From contig JADCGA010000008.1 of NCBI GenBank assembly GCA_020249265.1, positions 57,004 to 121,003 of the forward strand: a stretch of 64,000 nt of DNA, read 5' to 3'. The first letter of the stretch is position 1. Each line of letters starts with the position of its first letter. A program made the translations under genes and the position numbers. Below are positions 39,599-49,126 of the stretch, piece after piece. Origin of the DNA: Roseomonas sp. (GTDB taxonomy: Bacteria > Pseudomonadota > Alphaproteobacteria > Acetobacterales > Acetobacteraceae). Below the pieces are notes generated by a model. It was not told the origin of the DNA, made no database searches, and worked only from the letters and a program-made list of their open reading frames with translations.

Positions 39599-40468
39599 TC
39601 AGGGCAGCTGCAGCCGGACCGAAATCGGGCAATGATCGCTGATCACATCACGCAGCGCGGGATCGCGTTCCGTATAGGACAACACGCGAAAACTATCCTT
39701 GACGAGCCAATCTGCCGCGCGCAGCCCCAGCAGAATGTGGTCCACAAAAGCGCGTCCTTGCCCATCACGCGCCCAGCAGGGATTCGAAAAACCCTCTGTG
39801 GCGCGGCGCATCGGCGATGCGGCGTTCAGTATGGCAAGCATTTCATCATCGCGCGAAAAGCGCCGATTGAAATCGCCCAGGATAACGAAGGGCATGTTTT
39901 CGCGGCGCCGTTCGGTGATCCATTCCGCCAGGATATGCGCCTGCTGGCCGAGGCTTTGGCAATCGCTGTTATTGGGCTGGCGAACAGAACCCTGAGAGCA
40001 TCCGCCATCCAGGTGAATGGAAAGCAACCGCAGCCGGGCACCATTGGCACCATGCAGGGTGATATCGGCGCCACGCCGCAAGGAACGCCGCGCGGTTGGG
40101 CGAAGATCAAGCGCCATCAGGTCCGGATTGCGCGTGACATTGAGCCCCTTGCGCCAGGCAAAGCCGGCACGCTGCACATCGCTTTCTGCCGGAAAGTGAA
40201 AATCATAGGCGGTGGAATCAAACACCCGCGCCGCCGCCAAAGGCCCATCCACTTCCTGCAACGCAATCACATCCGCCGCCAGCCGTTCAGCATAGGCCCG
40301 CAGGCGAACGAAATCCTGTTCGGTCCTGGCGGTTAGATCGCGCGGCAGATCAGGATGGCCGGCGGGCTTGGTGGTGAGCCAGGCGATGTTCCAGGTGGCG
40401 AGTTTGATTTCCTGCGCCCATGCAGGCAACGCCAGGAACATCAGGGCCAGAAGGATCAGCGCGCGCAT
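39599..40468 (-). CDS. Secreted endonuclease/exonuclease/phosphatase family protein
   Basis: Signal peptide; ATWNI, DVIALQEV, HL, GDFNR, VDHIL, SDHCP. Confidence 0.9.
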   Translation of the reverse strand: MRALILLALMFLALPAWAQEIKLATWNIAWLTTKPAGHPDLPRDLTARTEQDFVRLRAYAERLAADVIALQEVDGPLAAARVFDSTAYDFHFPAESDVQRAGFAWRKGLNVTRNPDLMALDLRPTARRSLRRGADITLHGANGARLRLLSIHLDGGCSQGSVRQPNNSDCQSLGQQAHILAEWITERRRENMPFVILGDFNRRFSRDDEMLAILNAASPMRRATEGFSNPCWARDGQGRAFVDHILLGLRAADWLVKDSFRVLSYTERDPALRDVISDHCPISVRLQLP

Positions 40469-40475
40469 GGTAGCC

Positions 40476-42485
40476 TCATAAAAGCTGCGCCAGATCAGGC
40501 GCGGGTTCAGGTTCTTTGGTTAAAGCTTCAAGGGGCCGCGCGCCAGAGGCCAGCAGGAAATCAGCCAGCGCATCCATCTCCTCTGCCCGGCGCGTGCTGT
40601 CGTGGAAGGGATCATCGGCGGCGGAACCGGGCGGGACCCAGATGATCGTCTCATACCGCGCGCGCGTCAGCAGCACGCGATAGGTATTCAGGATGTAGCG
40701 CTGTTCCTCAGCGCCGCGCACGATCTGCCATTGATGGCCGGCAAAGCGCCGCGCGCGCCATTGGCCGGCATGACGCAAAAAATCGCCCCCCCAGGCAAGG
40801 CCCACCACATCCAATTCCAAGCCCTGGCAATCATATTCGGTGGCGAAGGTTTCAAGCGCTTCGGAAGAACGGATATCCGGCCAGCGCTTCAGGAACCAAT
40901 CGGCAATATCGGGCACCTGCACGCCAAGCCCTTCGGCGCGCAGGCGCCGCGCTCCGGCGGAAGCGACCAGCCCAGCGCGGCGCAAACCACGGCTGCGGGC
41001 GCGCAGGGCAGCGCGCCAAGCGATTGGATCGCGCGTGACGTAGTAGGGTAATTCTGGCGTCGCTTGCGCAATGGCGCGTGCGGCGGGCGCATCACCTTGC
41101 AAGACCGCATCCACCCATTCCGTGCCCCTGCTGGTGCGCAGGCTGCGAATGGGGGTTTGCAAGTCCAGATCATCATCGAAGCTGAGCCAAGCCTGCGGAC
41201 CTTCGGCTAGCCGTTGCGCGGGATCGGTAGCCGTGATGCTGCGCCGGGCCGCCACCGCGCGCCAGGAAGATGAAGCCGCAATTACGCGGCCCCATTCGGC
41301 AAGACCTGCCTCTCCGGTATTGATCTCCTGCCCATTGCCGATCAGCGCGACAATCACGGCCCAACCTTCATGCCGCGCCATGATTTCCAGCGTATGGGCG
41401 GGTTCGCTTTTGGTCAGGTGGCTTTTGCGGCGCTGGCCATCGCGTGTTGCTTGCGCCTGATCCCAGGCGCGTTGGGCTTCGTCGAAAACGATAATGCGCG
41501 CTTCGGGTTTCTCCGCCGCGTTGATCACGTGATGTTCCAGAAAGCGATGGACATTCTGCAACGCGGTGCGCGCAGCGCGTTCTGCGGCCTGAAACGCGGC
41601 ACCCCCTTGCGGCGCTGCATCGCGCGCCAAGGCTTCCCGCAATACCGTCACCAGCGGCACATTGCCGGAAAGGAAGGCCGCACCTGCTTCCCGCAAGGTA
41701 CCAAATACCAGATTGAGGCCGCAAAGCGTTTTGCCCGTGCCGGGAATGCCGGTGACGAAAACGACATGGCGCCCGCCTTCAGCTTGGGCATGCGCAATCA
41801 CGCGCGCAATGGCATCGGTGGTGCGGGTCAGATTATGTGCATCGGCGCGTGTGGCGCCGATATCCTGCACCGCATTGCGCCGATACAAAAGCCGCGCCGC
41901 TTCCAGCACGCTTGGTACGGGGCGATAGGCGGAACGCGCCCAGGCATCCGCTTCAATGGGCGTCGCTGGCGACGCGATGGCTGCCTGTGCGCGCGCCACA
42001 ATATCCCGCAGCATGGCGCCATTGGCGACCATGGCTGGTGCCACGCCATGCCAGAATAGCGGCAGGTCAAGATCGCGCTGCTGCGTGGCAGGGGCAACCA
42101 ATACAGGAATGATCGGCACGCCACGGCTGCCGGCATGAAAATCATGCAAATCCATGGCGTAATTATCGGTCTGGCGCAGATCAGCCAGGTCCGGCTTCTG
42201 CGCGCCCATCTTGAATTCCAGAACAAAAATCGCGCGGTCCGTCAGCAAAATGGCATCGGCGCGTTTTTCCAGGCGCAGCAAATCGCATTCCATGAAGATG
42301 TGCCAGGAAGCGTCGCCCTTAGCCAAAGCATCCTGCAACAGGGCAGCGCTGGCCTCCCAAGACTCGCGCTGCTTCAATTCAAGCGCGCCGAAACGCGCCG
42401 CCTGTTCATAGGCAAGGGCGGCAGCGATTTGCGCCGGCGTCTGAAGGCGAAACTCGCCTAGGCTTTGCGCGAACCACGGCCTCAT
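40476..42485 (-). CDS. DUF2075 (Schlafen group 3-like) helicase with N-terminal nuclease-like domain
   Basis: RADAILL...VLEFK, GIPGTGKT, VFDEAQR, CQGLELD, NTYRVLLTRAR. Confidence 0.85.
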   Translation of the reverse strand: MRPWFAQSLGEFRLQTPAQIAAALAYEQAARFGALELKQRESWEASAALLQDALAKGDASWHIFMECDLLRLEKRADAILLTDRAIFVLEFKMGAQKPDLADLRQTDNYAMDLHDFHAGSRGVPIIPVLVAPATQQRDLDLPLFWHGVAPAMVANGAMLRDIVARAQAAIASPATPIEADAWARSAYRPVPSVLEAARLLYRRNAVQDIGATRADAHNLTRTTDAIARVIAHAQAEGGRHVVFVTGIPGTGKTLCGLNLVFGTLREAGAAFLSGNVPLVTVLREALARDAAPQGGAAFQAAERAARTALQNVHRFLEHHVINAAEKPEARIIVFDEAQRAWDQAQATRDGQRRKSHLTKSEPAHTLEIMARHEGWAVIVALIGNGQEINTGEAGLAEWGRVIAASSSWRAVAARRSITATDPAQRLAEGPQAWLSFDDDLDLQTPIRSLRTSRGTEWVDAVLQGDAPAARAIAQATPELPYYVTRDPIAWRAALRARSRGLRRAGLVASAGARRLRAEGLGVQVPDIADWFLKRWPDIRSSEALETFATEYDCQGLELDVVGLAWGGDFLRHAGQWRARRFAGHQWQIVRGAEEQRYILNTYRVLLTRARYETIIWVPPGSAADDPFHDSTRRAEEMDALADFLLASGARPLEALTKEPEPAPDLAQLL

Positions 42486-43372
42486 GGACTACCCTTTCGC
42501 GGCCAGGTGGCAATCAGCACACTCAGCATCATCAGCGCGAAGCCTACGGCGTGGATGGCGGTAAACGCCTCCTGCAAGATCACCACAGCCACCAGCGCGG
42601 CGGTCGCGGGCAGGAAGGCAGTAAAGATGCCGGCAACACCGGCACCGACGCGCTTCAAGCCGGCATACCAAAGCAGCAGGCAAAGCACACTCGCCGTCAC
42701 GCTATGGAAAACCAGCAACGCCGCAAGCCGCGGATCTGCCAGCGCGGCGATGCTGGCAATATCCGGCAAGGCAAAGGGGGCGAGCATCAATGCCGAGAAA
42801 ATCTGCATCCAAAGGCTTGCCGTGATCACGCCAACGCGGCCCACGATGCGCCGTGCCAGCAGCACGTAAAGCGCTTCGCCGATCACACCGCCGAAGATCA
42901 GCAGATTGCCAAGGACAGACCCCGCAGCCTCCTCACCGCTGCGCGCAATCGTCATCGCCGCCATGCCGAAGGCCGCGAGGCTGACGGCGATCCATTGCGG
43001 CGGCGTCAGGCGTTCCCGCAGCCAAAAGGCGCTGCCCAAAGCCACCACCGCGGGCAGGCTTGCCAATACCAGCCCGCCTTCCAGCGCCGAGGTCAGGCGC
43101 AAGCCCGCCAGCAAGCCCGCATTATAGATCACGGTGCCGAACAGCGCCTGCCAGGCAAGGTTGCGCATCACCTCGCCCTCAGGCCGTGGCGCGGCTTCCA
43201 AAAAGCGCGCCAAGGGCCAAAGCAAGGCCACCGCCAAAACGCAGCGCAGAAAAGCGATCATCGGAATGGGCAGCGCTTCCGCCAGCAATTTCGCAATCGC
43301 GACATTGGCGCCGACCAGCGCCATGGAGGCCGCCAATTGCAGATAAGCGATGCGCGGCACGCCCGGCGTCAC
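42482..43372 (-). CDS. DMT/EamA family transporter
   Basis: Two EamA repeats, about 10 TM segments. Confidence 0.9.
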   Translation of the reverse strand: MTPGVPRIAYLQLAASMALVGANVAIAKLLAEALPIPMIAFLRCVLAVALLWPLARFLEAAPRPEGEVMRNLAWQALFGTVIYNAGLLAGLRLTSALEGGLVLASLPAVVALGSAFWLRERLTPPQWIAVSLAAFGMAAMTIARSGEEAAGSVLGNLLIFGGVIGEALYVLLARRIVGRVGVITASLWMQIFSALMLAPFALPDIASIAALADPRLAALLVFHSVTASVLCLLLWYAGLKRVGAGVAGIFTAFLPATAALVAVVILQEAFTAIHAVGFALMMLSVLIATWPRKGSP

Positions 43373-44532
43373 GCGCCCTCATCCGCCTGACGAAAGGGGG
43401 AAAGTGTGGCAAGCGCGGCCATTTCGCGTTCCATCGCCGGGCGTTCGCGCGCAAGAAATTCACCCACCGCGCGGGACAGCCCAGGATGCGCAATCCAATG
43501 CGCGGAATAGGTCGGCACGGGCAGATAACCGCGCTGGATTTTATGCTCACCCTGCGCGCCCGCTTCAACGCGCGGAATGCCATGCGCAATCGCAAAATCC
43601 ATCGCCATGTAATAGCAAAGTTCAAAATGCAAAAAGGGTACATCCACAATGGCGCCCCAGTTGCGGCCATAAATCGCATCGCGCCCGATCAGATTAAGCG
43701 CGGCGGCGACGGGTTCTCCATCTCGTTCCGCCACCATCAGCAGCACGCGATCACCAAGCCTTTCACCGAGCAGCGGCCAAAAAGCCCGCGTCAAATAGGC
43801 GCTGCGGCCCCATTTCTTATCCGTGGTGGCGCGATAGAAGCGATGAAAGGCCTGCCAATGGCGTGGCGTAATTTCTGCCCCGCGCAATGTGCGCAGCATC
43901 AGACCCGCCGCCTGCACATCGCGCCTTTCGCGCTTCAGCGCCTTGCGCTTGCGCGATGCCAGCGCGCCCAGGAAATCATCAAAATCGCGATAGCCCTGAT
44001 TGGCCCAATGGAATTGCGTGCCAAGCCTTTGCAGCCAGCCGGCATCACCCAGGGCGCGCCATTCGGCTTCTGTACAAAAGGTGGCATGGACAGATGATGC
44101 GCCAATGCCCTGACAGGCCTGCACCAGGGCGCCCGCCAAAACATCCGGCCCGAAACCGGCTTCGGGATGGACCAGCAGGCGCGGTCCAGGCACAGGGCTG
44201 AAGGGCGCGGCCACTTGCAGTTTCGGGTAGTAATCCCCGCCGGCGCGTTCCAAAGCATCCGCCCAGCCATGGTCAAACACATATTCGCCCTGCGAATGGG
44301 ATTTGGCATAGGCGGGCGCACAAGCAAGCAAGCGCTCCGCGCCATCGCGTAACGCCGCATGCTGGGGCAGCCAGCCGCGTTCCGCCACCGCACTGCCGCT
44401 TTCTTCCAGCGCCAATAGAAAGGCATGGCTCACGAAGGGATTGTCACCACCCGCACAGGCATCCCAATCACACGCCGGAATTTCGGCAATGGCGCGGTGC
44501 AGGGTCAGCGACAATTCGGTTGGGCTCGTCAT
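43369..44532 (-). CDS. GNAT/FemAB-like protein (DUF482)
   Basis: NPFVSHAFL, KSHSQGEYVFDHGWA, YYPKL, YGRNWG, HFELCYY, EAGAQGEHK. Confidence 0.9.
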   Translation of the reverse strand: MTSPTELSLTLHRAIAEIPACDWDACAGGDNPFVSHAFLLALEESGSAVAERGWLPQHAALRDGAERLLACAPAYAKSHSQGEYVFDHGWADALERAGGDYYPKLQVAAPFSPVPGPRLLVHPEAGFGPDVLAGALVQACQGIGASSVHATFCTEAEWRALGDAGWLQRLGTQFHWANQGYRDFDDFLGALASRKRKALKRERRDVQAAGLMLRTLRGAEITPRHWQAFHRFYRATTDKKWGRSAYLTRAFWPLLGERLGDRVLLMVAERDGEPVAAALNLIGRDAIYGRNWGAIVDVPFLHFELCYYMAMDFAIAHGIPRVEAGAQGEHKIQRGYLPVPTYSAHWIAHPGLSRAVGEFLARERPAMEREMAALATLSPFRQADEGA

Positions 44533-44577
44533 GCCCCTTGATGTCGTCACGGTGCCGGAGACAGCAAGCCCCGCACC

Positions 44578-45045
44578 TCACCCAATCTCAAACATGCCTT
44601 CCACTTCCACCGCCGCATCTCCGGGCAGGGAGGGCACGCCAATGGTGGTCCGCGCATGGCGACCAACATCACCAAACACTTCCACTGCCAGATCGGAAGC
44701 GCCATTCATCACCAGCGCGTGCTGGGTGAAGTCAGCCGGCGCGGCAATGAAGCCACCAAGCCGCACCACGCGCGTCACGTTATCTAAATCACCGGCGGCC
44801 GCCTTCAACTGCGCCAGTAGATTGATAAAGCAAAGCCGCGCCGCTTCGCGCCCCACTTCAATCGAAACACCGGCGCCAAGCTTGCCGGTATAGGCAATCT
44901 TGCCATCACGTACCGGCACCTGGCCGGAAATCACCACCAGCTTTCCGCTGATGTTGAAAGGGATGTAATTCGCAATCGGTGCCGCCGGCGTTGGCAATAC
45001 AATGCCAAGGGCAGCAAGCTTCGCTTCGATTTTTCCGGCCATCAT
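44578..45045 (-). CDS. RidA/YjgF family protein
   Basis: APIANYIP, ISGQVP, NGASDL, HARTTIG, VEVEG. Confidence 0.9.
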   Translation of the reverse strand: MMAGKIEAKLAALGIVLPTPAAPIANYIPFNISGKLVVISGQVPVRDGKIAYTGKLGAGVSIEVGREAARLCFINLLAQLKAAAGDLDNVTRVVRLGGFIAAPADFTQHALVMNGASDLAVEVFGDVGRHARTTIGVPSLPGDAAVEVEGMFEIG

Positions 45046-45067
45046 CCTGTTCCTTCAAAAGCGCCAA

Positions 45068-46564
45068 TTACGCTGCGGGGCGCAAATGGCGGCGCATGCG
45101 TGGTGAAGGATGCGCCGGCAATTCCAAGGGAAGCAAGGGCAGCACCGCGGCGCGCGGTTGCAGCGTTTCTTCCTCAACCGGGTCGGGCAAATCCTCGCGC
45201 CCCAGATAATCACGCGCCAGCCGCCGGAATGCCCAATCCAGCACGGAAGTGGCGCGGCGAATGCCCCCGTCGCCTTCCACCGCGCCGCCATGGCCAGGCG
45301 CATAGGCATAGGCGTTCACGAAGCTCGCCAAGGGCACGCCCTGCGCCAGGCCAAGCGAAACGGCCTGGGCGAGCGCTTCCATCAAAGCCCGCGTCATCGC
45401 CGCTTCACGCGGGAGGGAGAAGGAAATCTCCCGCAAATGGCCGCGATCATCTTCAACGGCGCGCAGCGCAACCCGATTGCCGGCAATGGCCACGCGCCAG
45501 CAGCGGTTGATTGGCGCGTGAATGGGCCGTGGTGCGGCGCGGCGCACTTCCGGCATATCAGCGGGGGCGGGCATGGCGGGCGGCGGCGCATCCAGGAAGG
45601 GCATCACCGCCGCTTCCATGGCGCGCCGCGCCTGCGGCGCCACGGGGGCCAAAAGCCATGCGGCATCAACGCCAGCGCGTTCAGCCGCGCCGGTTGGCAC
45701 TTGCGTGATGCGCCCATCCTCGCCGCGCGCCGGGCGGCTTGCGCCAGGGGCTGGGGCAATGCCGGCGCTTTCCGCGCCCAGCAGTGCTTCCACCGAATCA
45801 GCAGGTGCGAGGGCAATGCAGCCGCGATGGCGCAAACCTGGGGAAGCCGCCGCCGCCGCCAAAGCCGCGCGTGCTGCCTTGGCCAAGCCTGGAATGGCGG
45901 TTTCCTCGGGGGGCGTTGGGCAGATGAGCGCCACCGCATGGCGCGGGCCGAAACGCGTCGCGAGCCGACCGGATTCCGCTTCCGCCGCCCCGCGCGTCAG
46001 GCCGGCAATGGCGGCGGCGACATCGCGCGCCTCATTGCTGTCATAGCCAAGACCAAAACCGGCCAAAAGCCCGGCCAGATCGGCAAAACCAAGGCGGAGG
46101 CTCTCCGCCTTGCCATGGCCCCAAATATCAAGCGTTTGCACTGCCAACTGACAGGCCGCGCGATAGGCCGGCGCATCAAAGCCGCCTTCCCCATCCAGAA
46201 AGGCCGGCAGGTTCAGCACAAAACGTCCCTCAGCGCGGGCATCGCGCCAAATCTCGGCCCCGGGCGCGCCGCGCCGCGCTAAAATCAAGGAACGCAGGCC
46301 CGCGGCCAGGCTTTCCGCCGCGTCGGCGCCATCCAGCAAGCCAAGGCGTCGCCCGCGCAGCGTCAGGCGTTGAATCCAGGCCTCTGCCACGCTTGGCAGC
46401 GTGGCCGGGCCGCTTCCAGGGGCGAGCGCGGCCAGCGCCTCCCCGGCTTCATCTTCCCAAGGCACGGGGATAGCGACAGCGCGCGGCGGCGAATCAGGAT
46501 CCGCCCCCGCTTTCAAGCGCCTCAGCGCAACCCCAGCCCAAATGGTTCCAACAATGCCTGCCAT
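45068..46564 (-). CDS. Degenerate class II ribonucleotide reductase (NrdJ)-derived protein with TSCPD-type C-terminus
   Basis: Collinear NrdJ remnants (RGAPGAEIW, LNLPAF, LGFADLAGLL..LGYDS, IALAP..S, AVSLGLAQGVPL, ATSVLDWAFRRLARDYLGREDL); no NPCxE motif. Confidence 0.75.
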   Translation of the reverse strand: MAGIVGTIWAGVALRRLKAGADPDSPPRAVAIPVPWEDEAGEALAALAPGSGPATLPSVAEAWIQRLTLRGRRLGLLDGADAAESLAAGLRSLILARRGAPGAEIWRDARAEGRFVLNLPAFLDGEGGFDAPAYRAACQLAVQTLDIWGHGKAESLRLGFADLAGLLAGFGLGYDSNEARDVAAAIAGLTRGAAEAESGRLATRFGPRHAVALICPTPPEETAIPGLAKAARAALAAAAASPGLRHRGCIALAPADSVEALLGAESAGIAPAPGASRPARGEDGRITQVPTGAAERAGVDAAWLLAPVAPQARRAMEAAVMPFLDAPPPAMPAPADMPEVRRAAPRPIHAPINRCWRVAIAGNRVALRAVEDDRGHLREISFSLPREAAMTRALMEALAQAVSLGLAQGVPLASFVNAYAYAPGHGGAVEGDGGIRRATSVLDWAFRRLARDYLGREDLPDPVEEETLQPRAAVLPLLPLELPAHPSPRMRRHLRPAA

Positions 46565-46598
46565 GAGAGGAATGCTAAGCGCGACTCGAAAGCCTGGA

Positions 46599-46646
46599 AA
46601 GCCTTATTTAGTAGTTTTTTGGGGGTGGACCCACAATATCCTGTGG
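46599..46646. promoter_or_regulatory. Tandem NrdR-like boxes
   Basis: CCACAATATCCTGTGG (46631-46646) matches about 12/16 of acaCwAtATaTwGtgt; a weaker core CCTTATTTAG lies 32 bp away (46602-46611); both are upstream of the NrdJ-like gene. Confidence 0.55.
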
Positions 46647-46730
46647 ATAGCTTGCACATCGCTTTGCTTTTGCGTGACCCGCGCGGCTGTGCGACTATGC
46701 AACTCGTTTTTCTTGCACCGGGAAGCCGCC

Positions 46731-47072
46731 ATGCAGTTACTCAGTACGCTCTTTATCCGCCTCACCAGCCGTCAGGTTGGGCAGGACCGCTTCGGCAATA
46801 CCTATTGGGAAGCCCGCGGCCGACGCGATTCCTATGGCCGCCCCATGCGGCGGGTGCTTTACGCGAAGGAAGCCCAAGCTTCTGCCGTGCCGGCGGAATG
46901 GTGGGGCTGGCTGCACCACACCACGGAAAACCCTCTGCCCGAGGATGCGCCGCGCCGCCCCTGGCAGAAAGAGCATCTGCCCAATATGACCGGCACGTCC
47001 GAAGCTTGGCGGCCAGTGAACCCGGCGGCCAACCGCGGCGGGGATTACGAAGCCTGGACACCGGGGCGCTGA
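46731..47072 (+). CDS. NADH:ubiquinone oxidoreductase subunit NDUFA12-like
   Basis: VGQDRFGNTYW, RRVLY, VPAEWWGWLHH, WQKEHLPNMTGT, YEAWTP. Confidence 0.92.
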   Translation: MQLLSTLFIRLTSRQVGQDRFGNTYWEARGRRDSYGRPMRRVLYAKEAQASAVPAEWWGWLHHTTENPLPEDAPRRPWQKEHLPNMTGTSEAWRPVNPAANRGGDYEAWTPGR

Positions 47073-47098
47073 CGGCGCCCTTTTGAAAGCCCATTCCG

Positions 47099-47593
47099 AT
47101 GCAAAAGCGCAGTCTGGCGGAGATTTTGACCGGTTTGGTGGTGCTGGCCATTGCGGCAAGCTTCCTTGGCTATGCCGTCACCAGCACGGGGCGCAGCTTT
47201 TCTGGCGCCGGGATGAACCTCACCGCGAAGTTTGATCGGATTGATGGCCTGGGTCAGGGCGCCGATGTGCGCATTGCCGGCGTGAAGGTTGGGCAGGTTG
47301 TGGCGCAGCGGATTGATCCCGAAAGCTTCCTGGCCGTGCTGACGCTGCGCGTAGATGCCGGGCTGAAGCTGCCGCATGATACCTCGGCCGAGATTTCCAG
47401 CGAAGGTTTGCTCGGCGGCAAATATGTTGCGCTGGTGCCGGGCGGCGATACGCGCATTCTGCGCGATGGCAGTGAGATCACCATCACGCAAAGTGCCATC
47501 AATTTGGAAAGCCTGTTGGGGCGGTTCATTTTCTCGGCCGGTGAGACAAATCAGCGCGGCAATCAGGAAAACGCGCCGGCCACGCCGCGATGA
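47099..47593 (+). CDS. mlaD: Lipid asymmetry maintenance MCE protein
   Basis: AKFDRIDGL..GADVRIAGVKVG, SSEGLLGGKYVAL. Confidence 0.9.
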   Translation: MQKRSLAEILTGLVVLAIAASFLGYAVTSTGRSFSGAGMNLTAKFDRIDGLGQGADVRIAGVKVGQVVAQRIDPESFLAVLTLRVDAGLKLPHDTSAEISSEGLLGGKYVALVPGGDTRILRDGSEITITQSAINLESLLGRFIFSAGETNQRGNQENAPATPR

Positions 47594-47814
47594 AACCGCT
47601 GCCCAAGCCACCTGCCGCCTGGCCTGGGGCGGATGGGAAGCCTGTATCCTGCAATGAAAAGCTGAAAATGCTCGCAGAAAATCATACGGAAGCCGCGACA
47701 GTGCTGCGCGATGTGTTTGAAGACGCCGTGCTGATGGGCGTGGATGAAGGCGCGATGCGCGCGATCTTGCAGGAGATGATCGTAGCATTGCCAAGCCCGA
47801 AGCGCGGCACATGA
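47590..47814 (+). CDS. Small conserved hypothetical protein
   Basis: 74 aa, ATGA-coupled on both sides; PVSCNEKLKML...FEDAVLMG. Confidence 0.75.
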   Translation: MKPLPKPPAAWPGADGKPVSCNEKLKMLAENHTEAATVLRDVFEDAVLMGVDEGAMRAILQEMIVALPSPKRGT

Positions 47815-48170
47815 CAAGGCTTTTGGCCTTGGCGCTATGCTGCCTGCCGGGCATTGCCTTGGCGCAGGAATGGGTGCCGCGCCAACAAGCCCGCATCCAG
47901 GCGCTGGATAAGGTGACAGCGCGCGTGACGGTGCTGGAAGGCCGAGTGGGTGAAACTGTCAGTTTCGGCACGCTTTCCATCCGCATCGGCGCCTGCCATG
48001 CGCGCCCCCCCACCGAAGTGCCCGATTCCGCCGCCCGGTTTGAAATGACCGATAGCCGCGCGCCGCAGGGCAGCCCGCCCGTGTTTCGCGGCTGGATGTT
48101 CGCCGAAGCGCCGGGCGTGAATATGCTGGAACACCCCGTTTATGATGTGCGTATCCTAAGGTGCCTGTGA
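47811..48170 (+). CDS. DUF2155 domain protein
   Basis: ALDKVTAR, FGTLSI, FRGWMFA, LEHPVYDV; usual synteny with mlaD. Confidence 0.88.
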   Translation: MTRLLALALCCLPGIALAQEWVPRQQARIQALDKVTARVTVLEGRVGETVSFGTLSIRIGACHARPPTEVPDSAARFEMTDSRAPQGSPPVFRGWMFAEAPGVNMLEHPVYDVRILRCL

Positions 48171-48238
48171 TCCGAAGAATTTCTTTCTGCACAGCGCCTA
48201 ATCCGCTATCTTAGTCTACGCTTTATGAAGGCCAGCCC

Positions 48239-49126
48239 ATGTCAGCCGCAGCGAATGGCGCCCGCATCCAGCCGTTTTTTGATGAGGCGACCAATACGGT
48301 CAGCTATCTTGTCTTCGACCCCGCCACGCGCCAAGCCGCGGTGATTGACCCGGTGCTGGATTGGGACCATCGCAGTGGGGAGGCAGATACGCGTTCCGCT
48401 GATCGGCTGATTAAAGCCGCGCGGCAGGCAGGCGTTGCGATTGCGCTGATCCTGGAAACCCATGCCCATGCGGATCATTTGACCGCCGCACCCTATATCA
48501 AGCAGCGTTGCGGCGGGAAGATTGCCATTGGCGAACACATCAAGGATGTGCAGCGCATTTTCCGCCCGGTCTTCGCCGCCGATGATGTGAAGCCCGAAGG
48601 TGGCGATTTCGATCTGTTGTTGCGTGATGGGGAACGCCTGAAGCTTGGCATCCTGGAAATTGAGGTAATTCATACGCCGGGCCACACGCCGGCCTGTGTC
48701 TGCTACCGCATTGGTGATGATGTTTTCGTGGGCGATACGCTGTTCATGCATGATTACGGCACGGCGCGCGCTGATTTTCCGGGTGGTGATGCTCGCACCT
48801 TGTTTCGTTCCATCAAGCGCCTGCTGGCGCTACCGCCGCAAGCCAGGCTTTGGATGTGCCATGATTACAAGGCACCGGGGCGAGAGGATTATGCGTGGCA
48901 AAGCACAGTGGCCGAACAGCGCGCGCATAACCCACATGTGAAGGACGGCGTGACCGAAGATGAATTCGTGGCCTTCCGCCAGGCGCGCGATGCGAAGCTC
49001 GCGGCACCCACGCTGCTGCTGCCCTCGATCCAGGTGAATATCCGCGCCGGGCGCTTCCCGGAAGCTGAGAGCAATGGCGTGCGCTATTTGAAAATCCCCG
49101 TGAAGGCGCGGGTTGGGCTTGGCTAA
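48239..49126 (+). CDS. MBL-fold hydrolase, persulfide dioxygenase (ETHE1/Blh)-like
   Basis: ETHAHADH, TPGHTPAC, GDTLF...GTARADF, CHDY, P.LLLPSIQVN. Confidence 0.85.
   Translation: MSAAANGARIQPFFDEATNTVSYLVFDPATRQAAVIDPVLDWDHRSGEADTRSADRLIKAARQAGVAIALILETHAHADHLTAAPYIKQRCGGKIAIGEHIKDVQRIFRPVFAADDVKPEGGDFDLLLRDGERLKLGILEIEVIHTPGHTPACVCYRIGDDVFVGDTLFMHDYGTARADFPGGDARTLFRSIKRLLALPPQARLWMCHDYKAPGREDYAWQSTVAEQRAHNPHVKDGVTEDEFVAFRQARDAKLAAPTLLLPSIQVNIRAGRFPEAESNGVRYLKIPVKARVGLG

Follow-up and report, generated by a model that had tools for sequence, protein, structure and literature searches.

Every known class of ribonucleotide reductase (RNR) requires a cysteine that carries the thiyl radical. 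Catalytically inactive homologues of the RNR large subunit are found in betaherpesviruses (the M45/UL45 type), in which they are kept for a non-enzymatic role; these viral proteins derive from class I, have lost little of their length and target cell-death signaling of the host. The Pfam family TSCPD (PF12637), which includes stand-alone proteins, has conserved cysteines, among them that of the name-giving TSCPD motif. For class II RNRs, Loderer et al. described a C-terminal cysteine-rich domain (CRD) of 150–220 amino acids (aa) that folds independently and contains six terminal cysteines for zinc binding and electron relay; this domain is part of NrdJd of Stackebrandtia nassauensis and occurs as a separate polypeptide, the NrdJb subunit, in Pseudomonas aeruginosa (PMC5704485). 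The CRD is also required for the formation of dATP/dGTP-induced tetramers and hexamers, by a mechanism that, according to the published work, is yet to be described (PMC5704485). Here, we analyzed a stretch of 64,000 nucleotides (nt) from Roseomonas sp. (GCA_020249265.1, contig JADCGA010000008.1, positions 57,004–121,003 of the forward strand; hereafter the window, to which coordinates refer unless another contig is named), and focused on a 498-aa gene in it, termed mini-NrdJ, that is related to NrdJ, the class II RNR of alphaproteobacteria (structures 7B9P and 7B9Q).

Mini-NrdJ shares with alphaproteobacterial NrdJ, its direct ancestor in our interpretation, the chromosomal slot, a collinear N-terminal domain, strands of the second half-barrel, the CRD body and upstream NrdR boxes, whereas it comprises ~500 rather than ~1200 aa and lacks the first half-barrel, the NPCxE loop, the redox cysteines and the six-cysteine tail. 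The body of the S. nassauensis CRD corresponds to the best-conserved block of mini-NrdJ, although the six zinc-binding and electron-relay cysteines of the characterized CRD are missing; compared with NrdJb of P. aeruginosa, mini-NrdJ additionally contains the N-terminal domain and a half-barrel. In contrast to the M45/UL45 proteins, mini-NrdJ is encoded on a bacterial chromosome, derives from class II and has undergone extensive deletion. We are highly confident that mini-NrdJ is the positional orthologue of alphaproteobacterial nrdJ, that it shrank in the stem lineage of Acetobacteraceae via stepwise internal deletions, and that it is non-catalytic and under purifying selection. The overall interpretation, namely a non-catalytic pseudoenzyme that descends from nrdJ and is controlled by NrdR, appears likely, the regulatory part being predicted from the upstream sequence. 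We rate mini-NrdJ as an RNR-derived pseudoenzyme and not as a categorically new system, because dead RNR large subunits are already known in betaherpesviruses.

A reading of the window made from the sequence only had proposed an uninterrupted open reading frame (ORF) of 498 aa, and this was borne out: the frame on the minus strand starts with ATG and contains zero internal stops. The gene and its segments are as follows.

45068..46564, minus strand: coding sequence of mini-NrdJ (498 aa plus stop), with matches to NrdJ, the RNR barrel and TSCPD; interpreted as a non-catalytic nrdJ derivative
46235..46564, minus strand: residues 1–110, N-terminal domain, collinear with NrdJ ~10–158; predicted local distance difference test (pLDDT) score 90–98; ratio of non-synonymous to synonymous substitution rates (dN/dS) 0.04
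45560..46234, minus strand: residues 111–335, partially retained second half of the RNR barrel, identified by hhalign to NrdJ, a PDB sequence match and Foldseek
45170..45517, minus strand: residues 350–465, CRD body (Pfam TSCPD) with zero cysteines; the most conserved part of mini-NrdJ
45071..45169, minus strand: residues 466–498, predicted disordered tail with the motif PLLPL(D/E)LP...SPRxRRRxLRLV; pLDDT <60

Long ORFs on the opposite strand of the locus were dismissed as the usual artefacts of high-GC DNA, as selection falls on the minus-strand frame.

We compared mini-NrdJ with the NCBIfam model of alphaproteobacterial NrdJ (PRK07562, NF005736) and obtained 102 bits in two local stretches, against a curated cut-off of 1737; in a whole-genome search with the NrdJ profile, the stretches scored 75.6 and 26.4 bits. 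Pfam Ribonuc_red_lgC matched residues 118–272 (26 bits), and TSCPD matched residues 370–452 with 26.3 bits, above the gathering cut-off of 22.8. Accordingly, mini-NrdJ passes the score of the stand-alone TSCPD proteins, but the motif reads ATSVLD, a TSVLD in place of TSCPD, without a conserved cysteine, and the domain accounts for only about one quarter of the sequence. The match to NF005401 (PRK06948), an RNR-like family named 'ribonucleotide reductase-like protein' that has no assigned activity, was weak and local (24 bits versus 906), and mini-NrdJ is not a member.

We then aligned a profile of 31 short-form orthologues with a profile of 19 full-length NrdJ sequences from other alphaproteobacterial families using hhalign (NrdJ residues are numbered by a 1235-aa NrdJ). 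The two profiles aligned in collinear blocks with a probability of 100% (E-value 3.7e-59). Residues 112–275 of mini-NrdJ matched NrdJ ~485–700 with high confidence (SLNLMQF strand, LGLGYANIGGLL..GLxYDS, IAPTGT and TTGIEPDF), and residues 350–470, the TSCPD-like block, matched NrdJ ~970–1090, also with high confidence. Thus LGFADLAGLL..GLGYDS of mini-NrdJ pairs with LGLGYANIGGLL..GLxYDS, ALAP.. with IAPTGT, and ATSVLDWAFRRLA.DYLGR.DL with ATSILDYIFRELA.SYLGR.DL. The pairing of VLNLPAF with SLNLMQF, before which the cysteine-bearing 'ACNLA' is deleted, confirms the earlier proposal that LNLPAF replaces CNLASLNL without its cysteine. The N-terminal 110 residues are collinear with NrdJ 10–158 (RRGAPGAEIW for QMAPNSPQWFN), and the homology in this part was moderate (sub-alignment E-value 1.8e-4, probability 49%, 105 columns); the match of AMEAAVMPFL to RMMAAAQPFISG was suggestive only (E-value 0.027). 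Most of the NrdJ landmarks named in the sequence-only reading were therefore recovered by the profile alignment, whereas the APGAEIW/APNSPQW pair received moderate support only.

The alignment also indicated which segments of NrdJ are lost. Mini-NrdJ lacks NrdJ ~167–484, which comprises the first half-barrel, the PHACFIQ cysteine, the effector loops, the NPCSEY finger loop and the ACNLASLNL cysteine, as well as most of NrdJ ~700–970 (the last barrel strands) and everything past NrdJ ~1140. NPCSEY had no counterpart in the mini profile when aligned with the 19 full NrdJ sequences, in agreement with the earlier suggestion that the NPCxE radical loop is deleted outright. The body that follows the barrel (mini 350–470) is retained as in a CRD of ~150–220 aa, without the terminal array of six cysteines: full NrdJ continues into a linker and then ...GYEGDxCxECGNFTLVRNGTCLKCDTCGSTSGCS, and this array was found in no mini form. 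For this reason, the TSCPD-type block, which had been taken for a well-preserved C-terminus, does align with NrdJ but represents the CRD body rather than the NrdJ C-terminus. The TSCPD-like block of full-length alphaproteobacterial NrdJ is cysteine-free as well ('ATSILDY'). The CRD body of mini-NrdJ is 40–46% identical to full NrdJ of other families and matches NrdJ profile positions ~966–1105, with up to 213 bits in relatives. The tail motif is kept in 31/31 orthologues, the most divergent included, and its counterpart in full NrdJ may be the G[YF]xRxxLxV segment. The disordered tail, which is short and basic, also resembles a short linear docking motif.

A structure predicted with AlphaFold2 from 99 sequences had a mean pLDDT of 88.9 and a predicted template modeling score of 0.69, with disorder confined to the linker (residues 338–349) and the tail (residues 466–498). 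The barrel remnant (residues 111–335) contains the VLNLPAF, LGFADLAGLL and ALAP strands, the EALLG..GIAPA loop, a hairpin and two helices. Its sequence matched 7B9P in the PDB (E-value 1e-12), and the top Foldseek matches of the model were Rhodobacter sphaeroides NrdJ (7B9Q/7B9P, E-value 1e-9), followed by Thermotoga maritima NrdJ, NrdE and NrdA; the alignment to the RNR structures spans ~250 columns of the 498 residues. The CRD body modeled alone was also predicted confidently (pLDDT 87.2). IscU-like matches to the CRD body recurred but were weak and below significance, and were not used.

To be a reductase, mini-NrdJ would have to contain a radical cysteine. We found no alignment column with cysteine in ≥30% of sequences among the 31 orthologues, and three orthologues (L012, L025 and L035) contain zero cysteines. 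Since all RNR classes need the thiyl-radical cysteine, the sequence itself excludes reductase activity; mini-NrdJ has neither the NPCxE cysteine nor a complete ten-stranded barrel with a redox cysteine pair and effector loops, and with the finger loop, redox cysteines, half-barrel and zinc tail lost it cannot reduce nucleotides. The survey thus upholds the earlier view that the protein is catalytically dead, for which a hidden catalytic cysteine would have been the counter-evidence. That mini-NrdJ is a cryptic active RNR with an unrecognized radical site, as database names such as 'vitamin B12-dependent ribonucleotide reductase' and 'ribonucleoside-diphosphate reductase' would have it, was consequently rejected and deserves practically no credence, given the cysteine survey, the 102 bits against a cut-off of 1737 and the loss of half of the barrel together with the cofactor-side strands.

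We searched the host genome (99.9% complete) for RNRs and found one class I enzyme, encoded on contig C14, that is, on another contig than mini-NrdJ. Its alpha subunit (C14 positions 39936–41849) is of the PRK09102 type (1023 bits versus a cut-off of 620), contains SNLCSEI and a C-terminal CLAC and has no ATP-cone, and its beta subunit (42971–44038) scored 579 bits versus a cut-off of 237. Neither a class III RNR nor a true NrdJ was found in the host genome by profile search, and class I is the working RNR of the host. Between the alpha and beta genes lies a 330-aa ORF with a signal peptide (C14:41907–42896), which is Bug/TctC-like as judged by eye only. PRK09102-type alpha subunits were detected in 107/121 genomes of the family. 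The mini gene is also kept in five genomes with other RNRs of 760–930 aa (G007, G016, G028, G109 and G110) and in G076, which has only a full NrdJ, and its retention is therefore independent of the type of active RNR.

The genes that surround mini-NrdJ in the window are listed below.

44578..45045, minus strand: RidA/YjgF-like gene (PF14588, 101 bits), 22 nt downstream of mini-NrdJ
43369..44550, minus strand: FemAB-like/GNAT-type gene (PF04339, 516 bits), 27 nt beyond the RidA-like gene
about 46716–47072, plus strand: NDUFA12-like gene, divergent (Pfam and NCBIfam matches)
47099–47593, plus strand: MlaD gene (Pfam and NCBIfam matches)
47811–48170, plus strand: DUF2155 gene (Pfam and NCBIfam matches)

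The RidA-like gene, and with it the FemAB-like gene, is probably co-transcribed with mini-NrdJ. We compared this arrangement with an outgroup sample of 20 genomes from different alphaproteobacterial families (loci L051–L070). Full-length nrdJ divergently adjoins NDUFA12-MlaD in 16/20 of these families, which bears out the earlier statement that a ~1200-aa nrdJ often lies beside NDUFA12, and DUF2155 is also present in 15 of those 16 loci; the stretch fetched for the remaining locus (L065) stops short of DUF2155. In six outgroup loci, full nrdJ has a RidA-like gene, a FemAB-like gene or both on its 3' side, directly after it in L052, L055, L056 and L068 and several kilobases (kb) further on in L051 and L062. 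The RidA-like gene lies at most ~1 kb past the last block that matches mini-NrdJ in L052, L055 and L068 and 3–6 kb past it in L062 and L051, and a FemAB-like gene was found in L052, L055, L056 and L068. Among 30 Acetobacteraceae loci, a RidA-like gene follows the mini gene in 25/30, NDUFA12 and MlaD lie beside it in 27/30, and a FemAB-like gene was found in 17/30, a count limited by flank length. The order in the window (FemAB-like, RidA-like, mini-NrdJ, NDUFA12, MlaD, DUF2155) is the order at the outgroup nrdJ slot; by position, the mini gene is therefore orthologous to nrdJ.

A further line of evidence came from an intermediate form. Genome G054 encodes at the same slot a version of ~780 aa (L072, G054:C17:35000–45639; gene from about 4672/4729 to 7068), which aligns to NrdJ 506–1089 (E-value 1e-65) and retains the 700–970 segment, while lacking the first half-barrel and any NPCxE motif; its tail and upstream boxes are as in the mini form. 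We read this gene as a surviving intermediate, which, although a single case, suggests that loss of the catalytic half preceded that of the distal barrel. It is followed by two tandem RidA-like genes. Descent from nrdJ is thus indicated by homology, conserved flanks and the G054 intermediate, and the proposal that mini-NrdJ occupies the ancestral nrdJ position was supported both by synteny and by the ~780-aa gene at the same slot. Genome G076 (C58; L049 and L050) contains the mini form at the slot and, 30 kb away, a true NrdJ of 1212 aa (2096 bits); it is the sole genome of the 121 from the family with an NrdJ above the cut-off, and it lacks a PRK09102-type class I alpha. The full NrdJ of G076 may possibly be a horizontal re-acquisition. 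As a separate observation, in the arrangement conserved in 16/20 of the sampled alphaproteobacterial families, an RNR gene and an NDUFA12-like gene have an intergenic region in common, in which NrdR boxes lie.

We next consider how widely mini-NrdJ is distributed and how it evolves. A match was detected in 117/121 Acetobacteraceae genomes (116/120 genera), the large majority being uninterrupted frames of ~490–540 aa with 35–97% identity, and in 58/61 genomes of an order-level sample, all of which belong to Acetobacteraceae. Outside the family, among 200 genomes of the class, we detected only NrdJ frames of ~1200–1350 aa, which were matched via the two conserved blocks; the short form is restricted to Acetobacteraceae. 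The start codons of the orthologues are aligned and their lengths are 490–536 aa, and an alignment of 99 homologues contained 35 invariant columns, with invariant polar residues including D432, S440, D443, R447, H246 and Y174. Compared with the closest relative, the same-genus G005, dN/dS was 0.071 (76 synonymous and 16 non-synonymous differences); the values of the segments (N-terminal domain, barrel remnant, linker and CRD body) were 0.04 to 0.13, and the 33-residue tail contained no non-synonymous change. For the same pair, dN/dS was 0.07 for the RidA-like gene, 0.07 for NDUFA12 and 0.13 for MlaD. The selection estimate is based on this one unsaturated pair together with the family-wide conservation. 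Purifying selection on mini-NrdJ is as strong as on its housekeeping neighbors, and simple decay is excluded.

These results bear on the possibility that the gene is a decaying pseudogene, or an ORF that serves only as a translated spacer for the RidA-like and FemAB-like genes. Large parts of the enzyme are indeed gone, a few lineages have lost or disrupted the gene, and the downstream genes, 22 and 27 nt apart, may rely on the mini-NrdJ promoter, but a dN/dS of 0.07 (0–0.13 over segments), the 35 invariant columns, an intact gene of conserved length and start codon in 116/120 genera, and a high-confidence fold backed by covariation led us to reject this explanation, which is extremely improbable. 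With catalytic residues lost and purifying selection acting, mini-NrdJ has two properties of a pseudoenzyme; the sequence-only reading had likewise favored a pseudoenzyme under selection over decay, and a dN/dS far from 1 and the rarity of disruption in relatives agree with it.

The upstream region contains the following elements.

46631..46646, minus strand: predicted NrdR box 1, CCACAGGATATTGTGG, with 12/16 consensus matches
46599..46614, minus strand: predicted NrdR box 2, CTACTAAATAAGGCTT, weaker, with 9/16 consensus matches, 32 bp downstream of box 1
46572..46577, minus strand: TAGCAT, 7 nt before the ATG, a possible –10 element; conserved block in the alignment of upstream regions

NrdR binds as a tetramer to two palindromic boxes that are about three helical turns apart and overlap the promoter, and each box contains two critical GC pairs 9 bp apart (PMC9110341). 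We scanned the 3.96-Mb genome for two boxes 30–33 bp apart and found eight tandem pairs, two of which lie directly upstream of class I alpha and one upstream of mini-NrdJ (CCACAGGATATTGTGG at 46646–46631 and CTACTAAATAAGGCTT at 46614–46599, 32 bp apart). The genome also encodes a canonical NrdR (178 bits versus a cut-off of 125). Tandem boxes and an NrdR gene together place mini-NrdJ in the predicted NrdR regulon, with binding and repression as predictions, and the 32-bp spacing would fit the published arrangement of the tetramer. The intergenic regions of the orthologues are poorly conserved save for the two boxes, which are fixed at ~–81 from the ATG, and TAGCAT. The mean score of the tandem boxes across orthologues was 19.2 compared with a background of 13.5 (95th percentile 17); in box 1, C4 was conserved in 28/30 loci and G13 in 29/30, and the spacing was 32 bp in 20/30 loci. 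Outgroup full-length nrdJ genes have similar tandem boxes upstream, and the operator of mini-NrdJ was therefore inherited.

The conserved TAGCAT 7 nt before the ATG, together with the lack of a Shine-Dalgarno sequence, suggests a leaderless or near-leaderless mini-NrdJ mRNA, of which TAGCAT could be the –10 element. A simple scan for consensus sigma-70 promoters and terminators revealed nothing above chance, and an Rfam search over 43000–48500 detected no riboswitch and no other RNA. The top-scoring tandem NrdR-like pair of the genome (CCACGGGATTTAGTGG and CCCCAACATATAGCGT) lies elsewhere, at C9:27978–28025, where it is flanked by a MinC/MinD-like operon and a divergent frame of 367 aa, and could be either a chance occurrence or an additional NrdR target.

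If the predicted operator is functional, mini-NrdJ would be expressed with the dNTP-supply regulon (dNTP, deoxyribonucleoside triphosphate), with NrdR repressing it at high dATP, and would be made when the demand for dNTPs is high. It would then work without catalysis, via protein–protein contacts or self-association mediated by the CRD body and the conserved tail, and the role retained may be a non-catalytic one that was already present in ancestral NrdJ. We tentatively propose, as one possibility, that mini-NrdJ acts by CRD-mediated interaction or oligomerization. This proposal is supported by three considerations: the CRD body, which is retained minus its cysteine array, is the block closest to active NrdJ; the CRD drives oligomerization independently of the redox role of its cysteines; and the ligand sites of the barrel have been lost. 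More speculatively, and with rather low probability, the half-barrel and CRD body may form a nucleotide-responsive oligomerization module, a new RNR-derived regulator that would exert feedback on the supply of dNTPs; it could, for instance, sequester or modulate NrdR, the reductant system or the RNR of the respective genome.

Several observations weigh against the interpretation of mini-NrdJ as an NrdR-controlled pseudoenzyme that acts through its CRD. Box 2 is weak: its left half-site is conserved (C4 in 29/30 loci), but G13 is kept in just 17/30. The predicted boxes may also owe their conservation not to mini-NrdJ but to the RidA-like and FemAB-like genes downstream of it or to NDUFA12, which is divergent. 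Three complete genomes (G089, G095 and G324) lack mini-NrdJ; the gene may be frameshifted in G010, G074 and G106, and is interrupted by a single TGA in G331; mini-NrdJ is therefore dispensable in some lineages. Furthermore, a fold search with the CRD body revealed no significant solved relative (best E-value 0.25) and no hint of a mechanism, and the nucleotide that drives CRD-dependent oligomerization in characterized NrdJ may be bound at the specificity site, a part that mini-NrdJ has lost.

Among the other explanations, the remnant could be a ligand sensor that binds adenosylcobalamin or a (deoxy)nucleotide and signals its level to another protein; nucleotide or B12 sensing was among the roles suggested in the sequence-only reading. 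The ancestor was a B12- and dNTP-binding enzyme, the upstream NrdR boxes link mini-NrdJ to dNTP status, the GIAPA loop is conserved and aligns with TTGIEPDF, which lies near the substrate phosphate site, and cobalamin riboswitches in 108/121 genomes of the family indicate that B12 matters to most of its members. The deletions, however, removed the specificity-effector loops along with the entire first half-barrel, and also took away the finger loop and the final strands of the barrel. The APTGT motif for phosphate binding has degenerated, and no ligand-binding motif was identified in mini-NrdJ; in addition, at least eight good genomes without a detectable cobalamin riboswitch keep the gene (G001, G016, G038, G040, G042, G088, G094 and G100), which is weak evidence against B12 sensing. 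We consider a sensor unlikely.

It is quite unlikely that mini-NrdJ specifically serves the class I RNR (PRK09102-type NrdA and NrdB) as an accessory or regulatory subunit, having taken on this role when class I replaced NrdJ. Such a role would agree with an alpha subunit without an ATP-cone as part of the only working RNR of the host, with the frequency of this alpha type in the family (107/121) and with the NrdR boxes that precede both mini-NrdJ and the class I genes, but the mini gene is unlinked to the class I operon and is kept in the six genomes named above (G007, G016, G028, G109, G110 and G076), all of which lack a PRK09102-type alpha. A neo-functionalized enzyme, in which the half-barrel and CRD body would have gained a new cysteine-independent activity, is very improbable: strong purifying selection, the invariant polar residues and a compact, confidently predicted fold speak for it, whereas these residues are scattered over three domains without forming a recognizable site, the barrel is incomplete, and searches of Pfam, NCBIfam and Foldseek revealed no match to an enzyme family besides RNR.

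A literature search found no paper on the mini-NrdJ family. Public records of homologues come from Roseomonas-like genera, Komagataeibacter, Novacetimonas, Gluconacetobacter, Acetobacter, Gluconobacter, Asaia and Commensalibacter; all of them have a precomputed PF12637 match, and they are named 'TSCPD domain-containing protein', 'hypothetical protein' or as an RNR. Many ~500-aa orthologues (P0252–P0335 and others, from Acetobacter, Komagataeibacter, Gluconobacter and related genera) are misnamed as B12-dependent or diphosphate RNRs. Such names would mislead metabolic models and predictions of B12 dependency for acetic acid bacteria.

The natural separation of the CRD body from its redox cysteines provides a clean handle on the second role of the domain, and a feedback regulator of the kind outlined above, if real, would explain what the CRD, which most class II RNRs contain, does besides its redox role. 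The entire family, including industrial and symbiotic acetic acid bacteria, has retained a dead piece of NrdJ since its origin, and the conservation of this remnant behind NrdR-type boxes points to an undescribed non-catalytic function tied to DNA-precursor supply.

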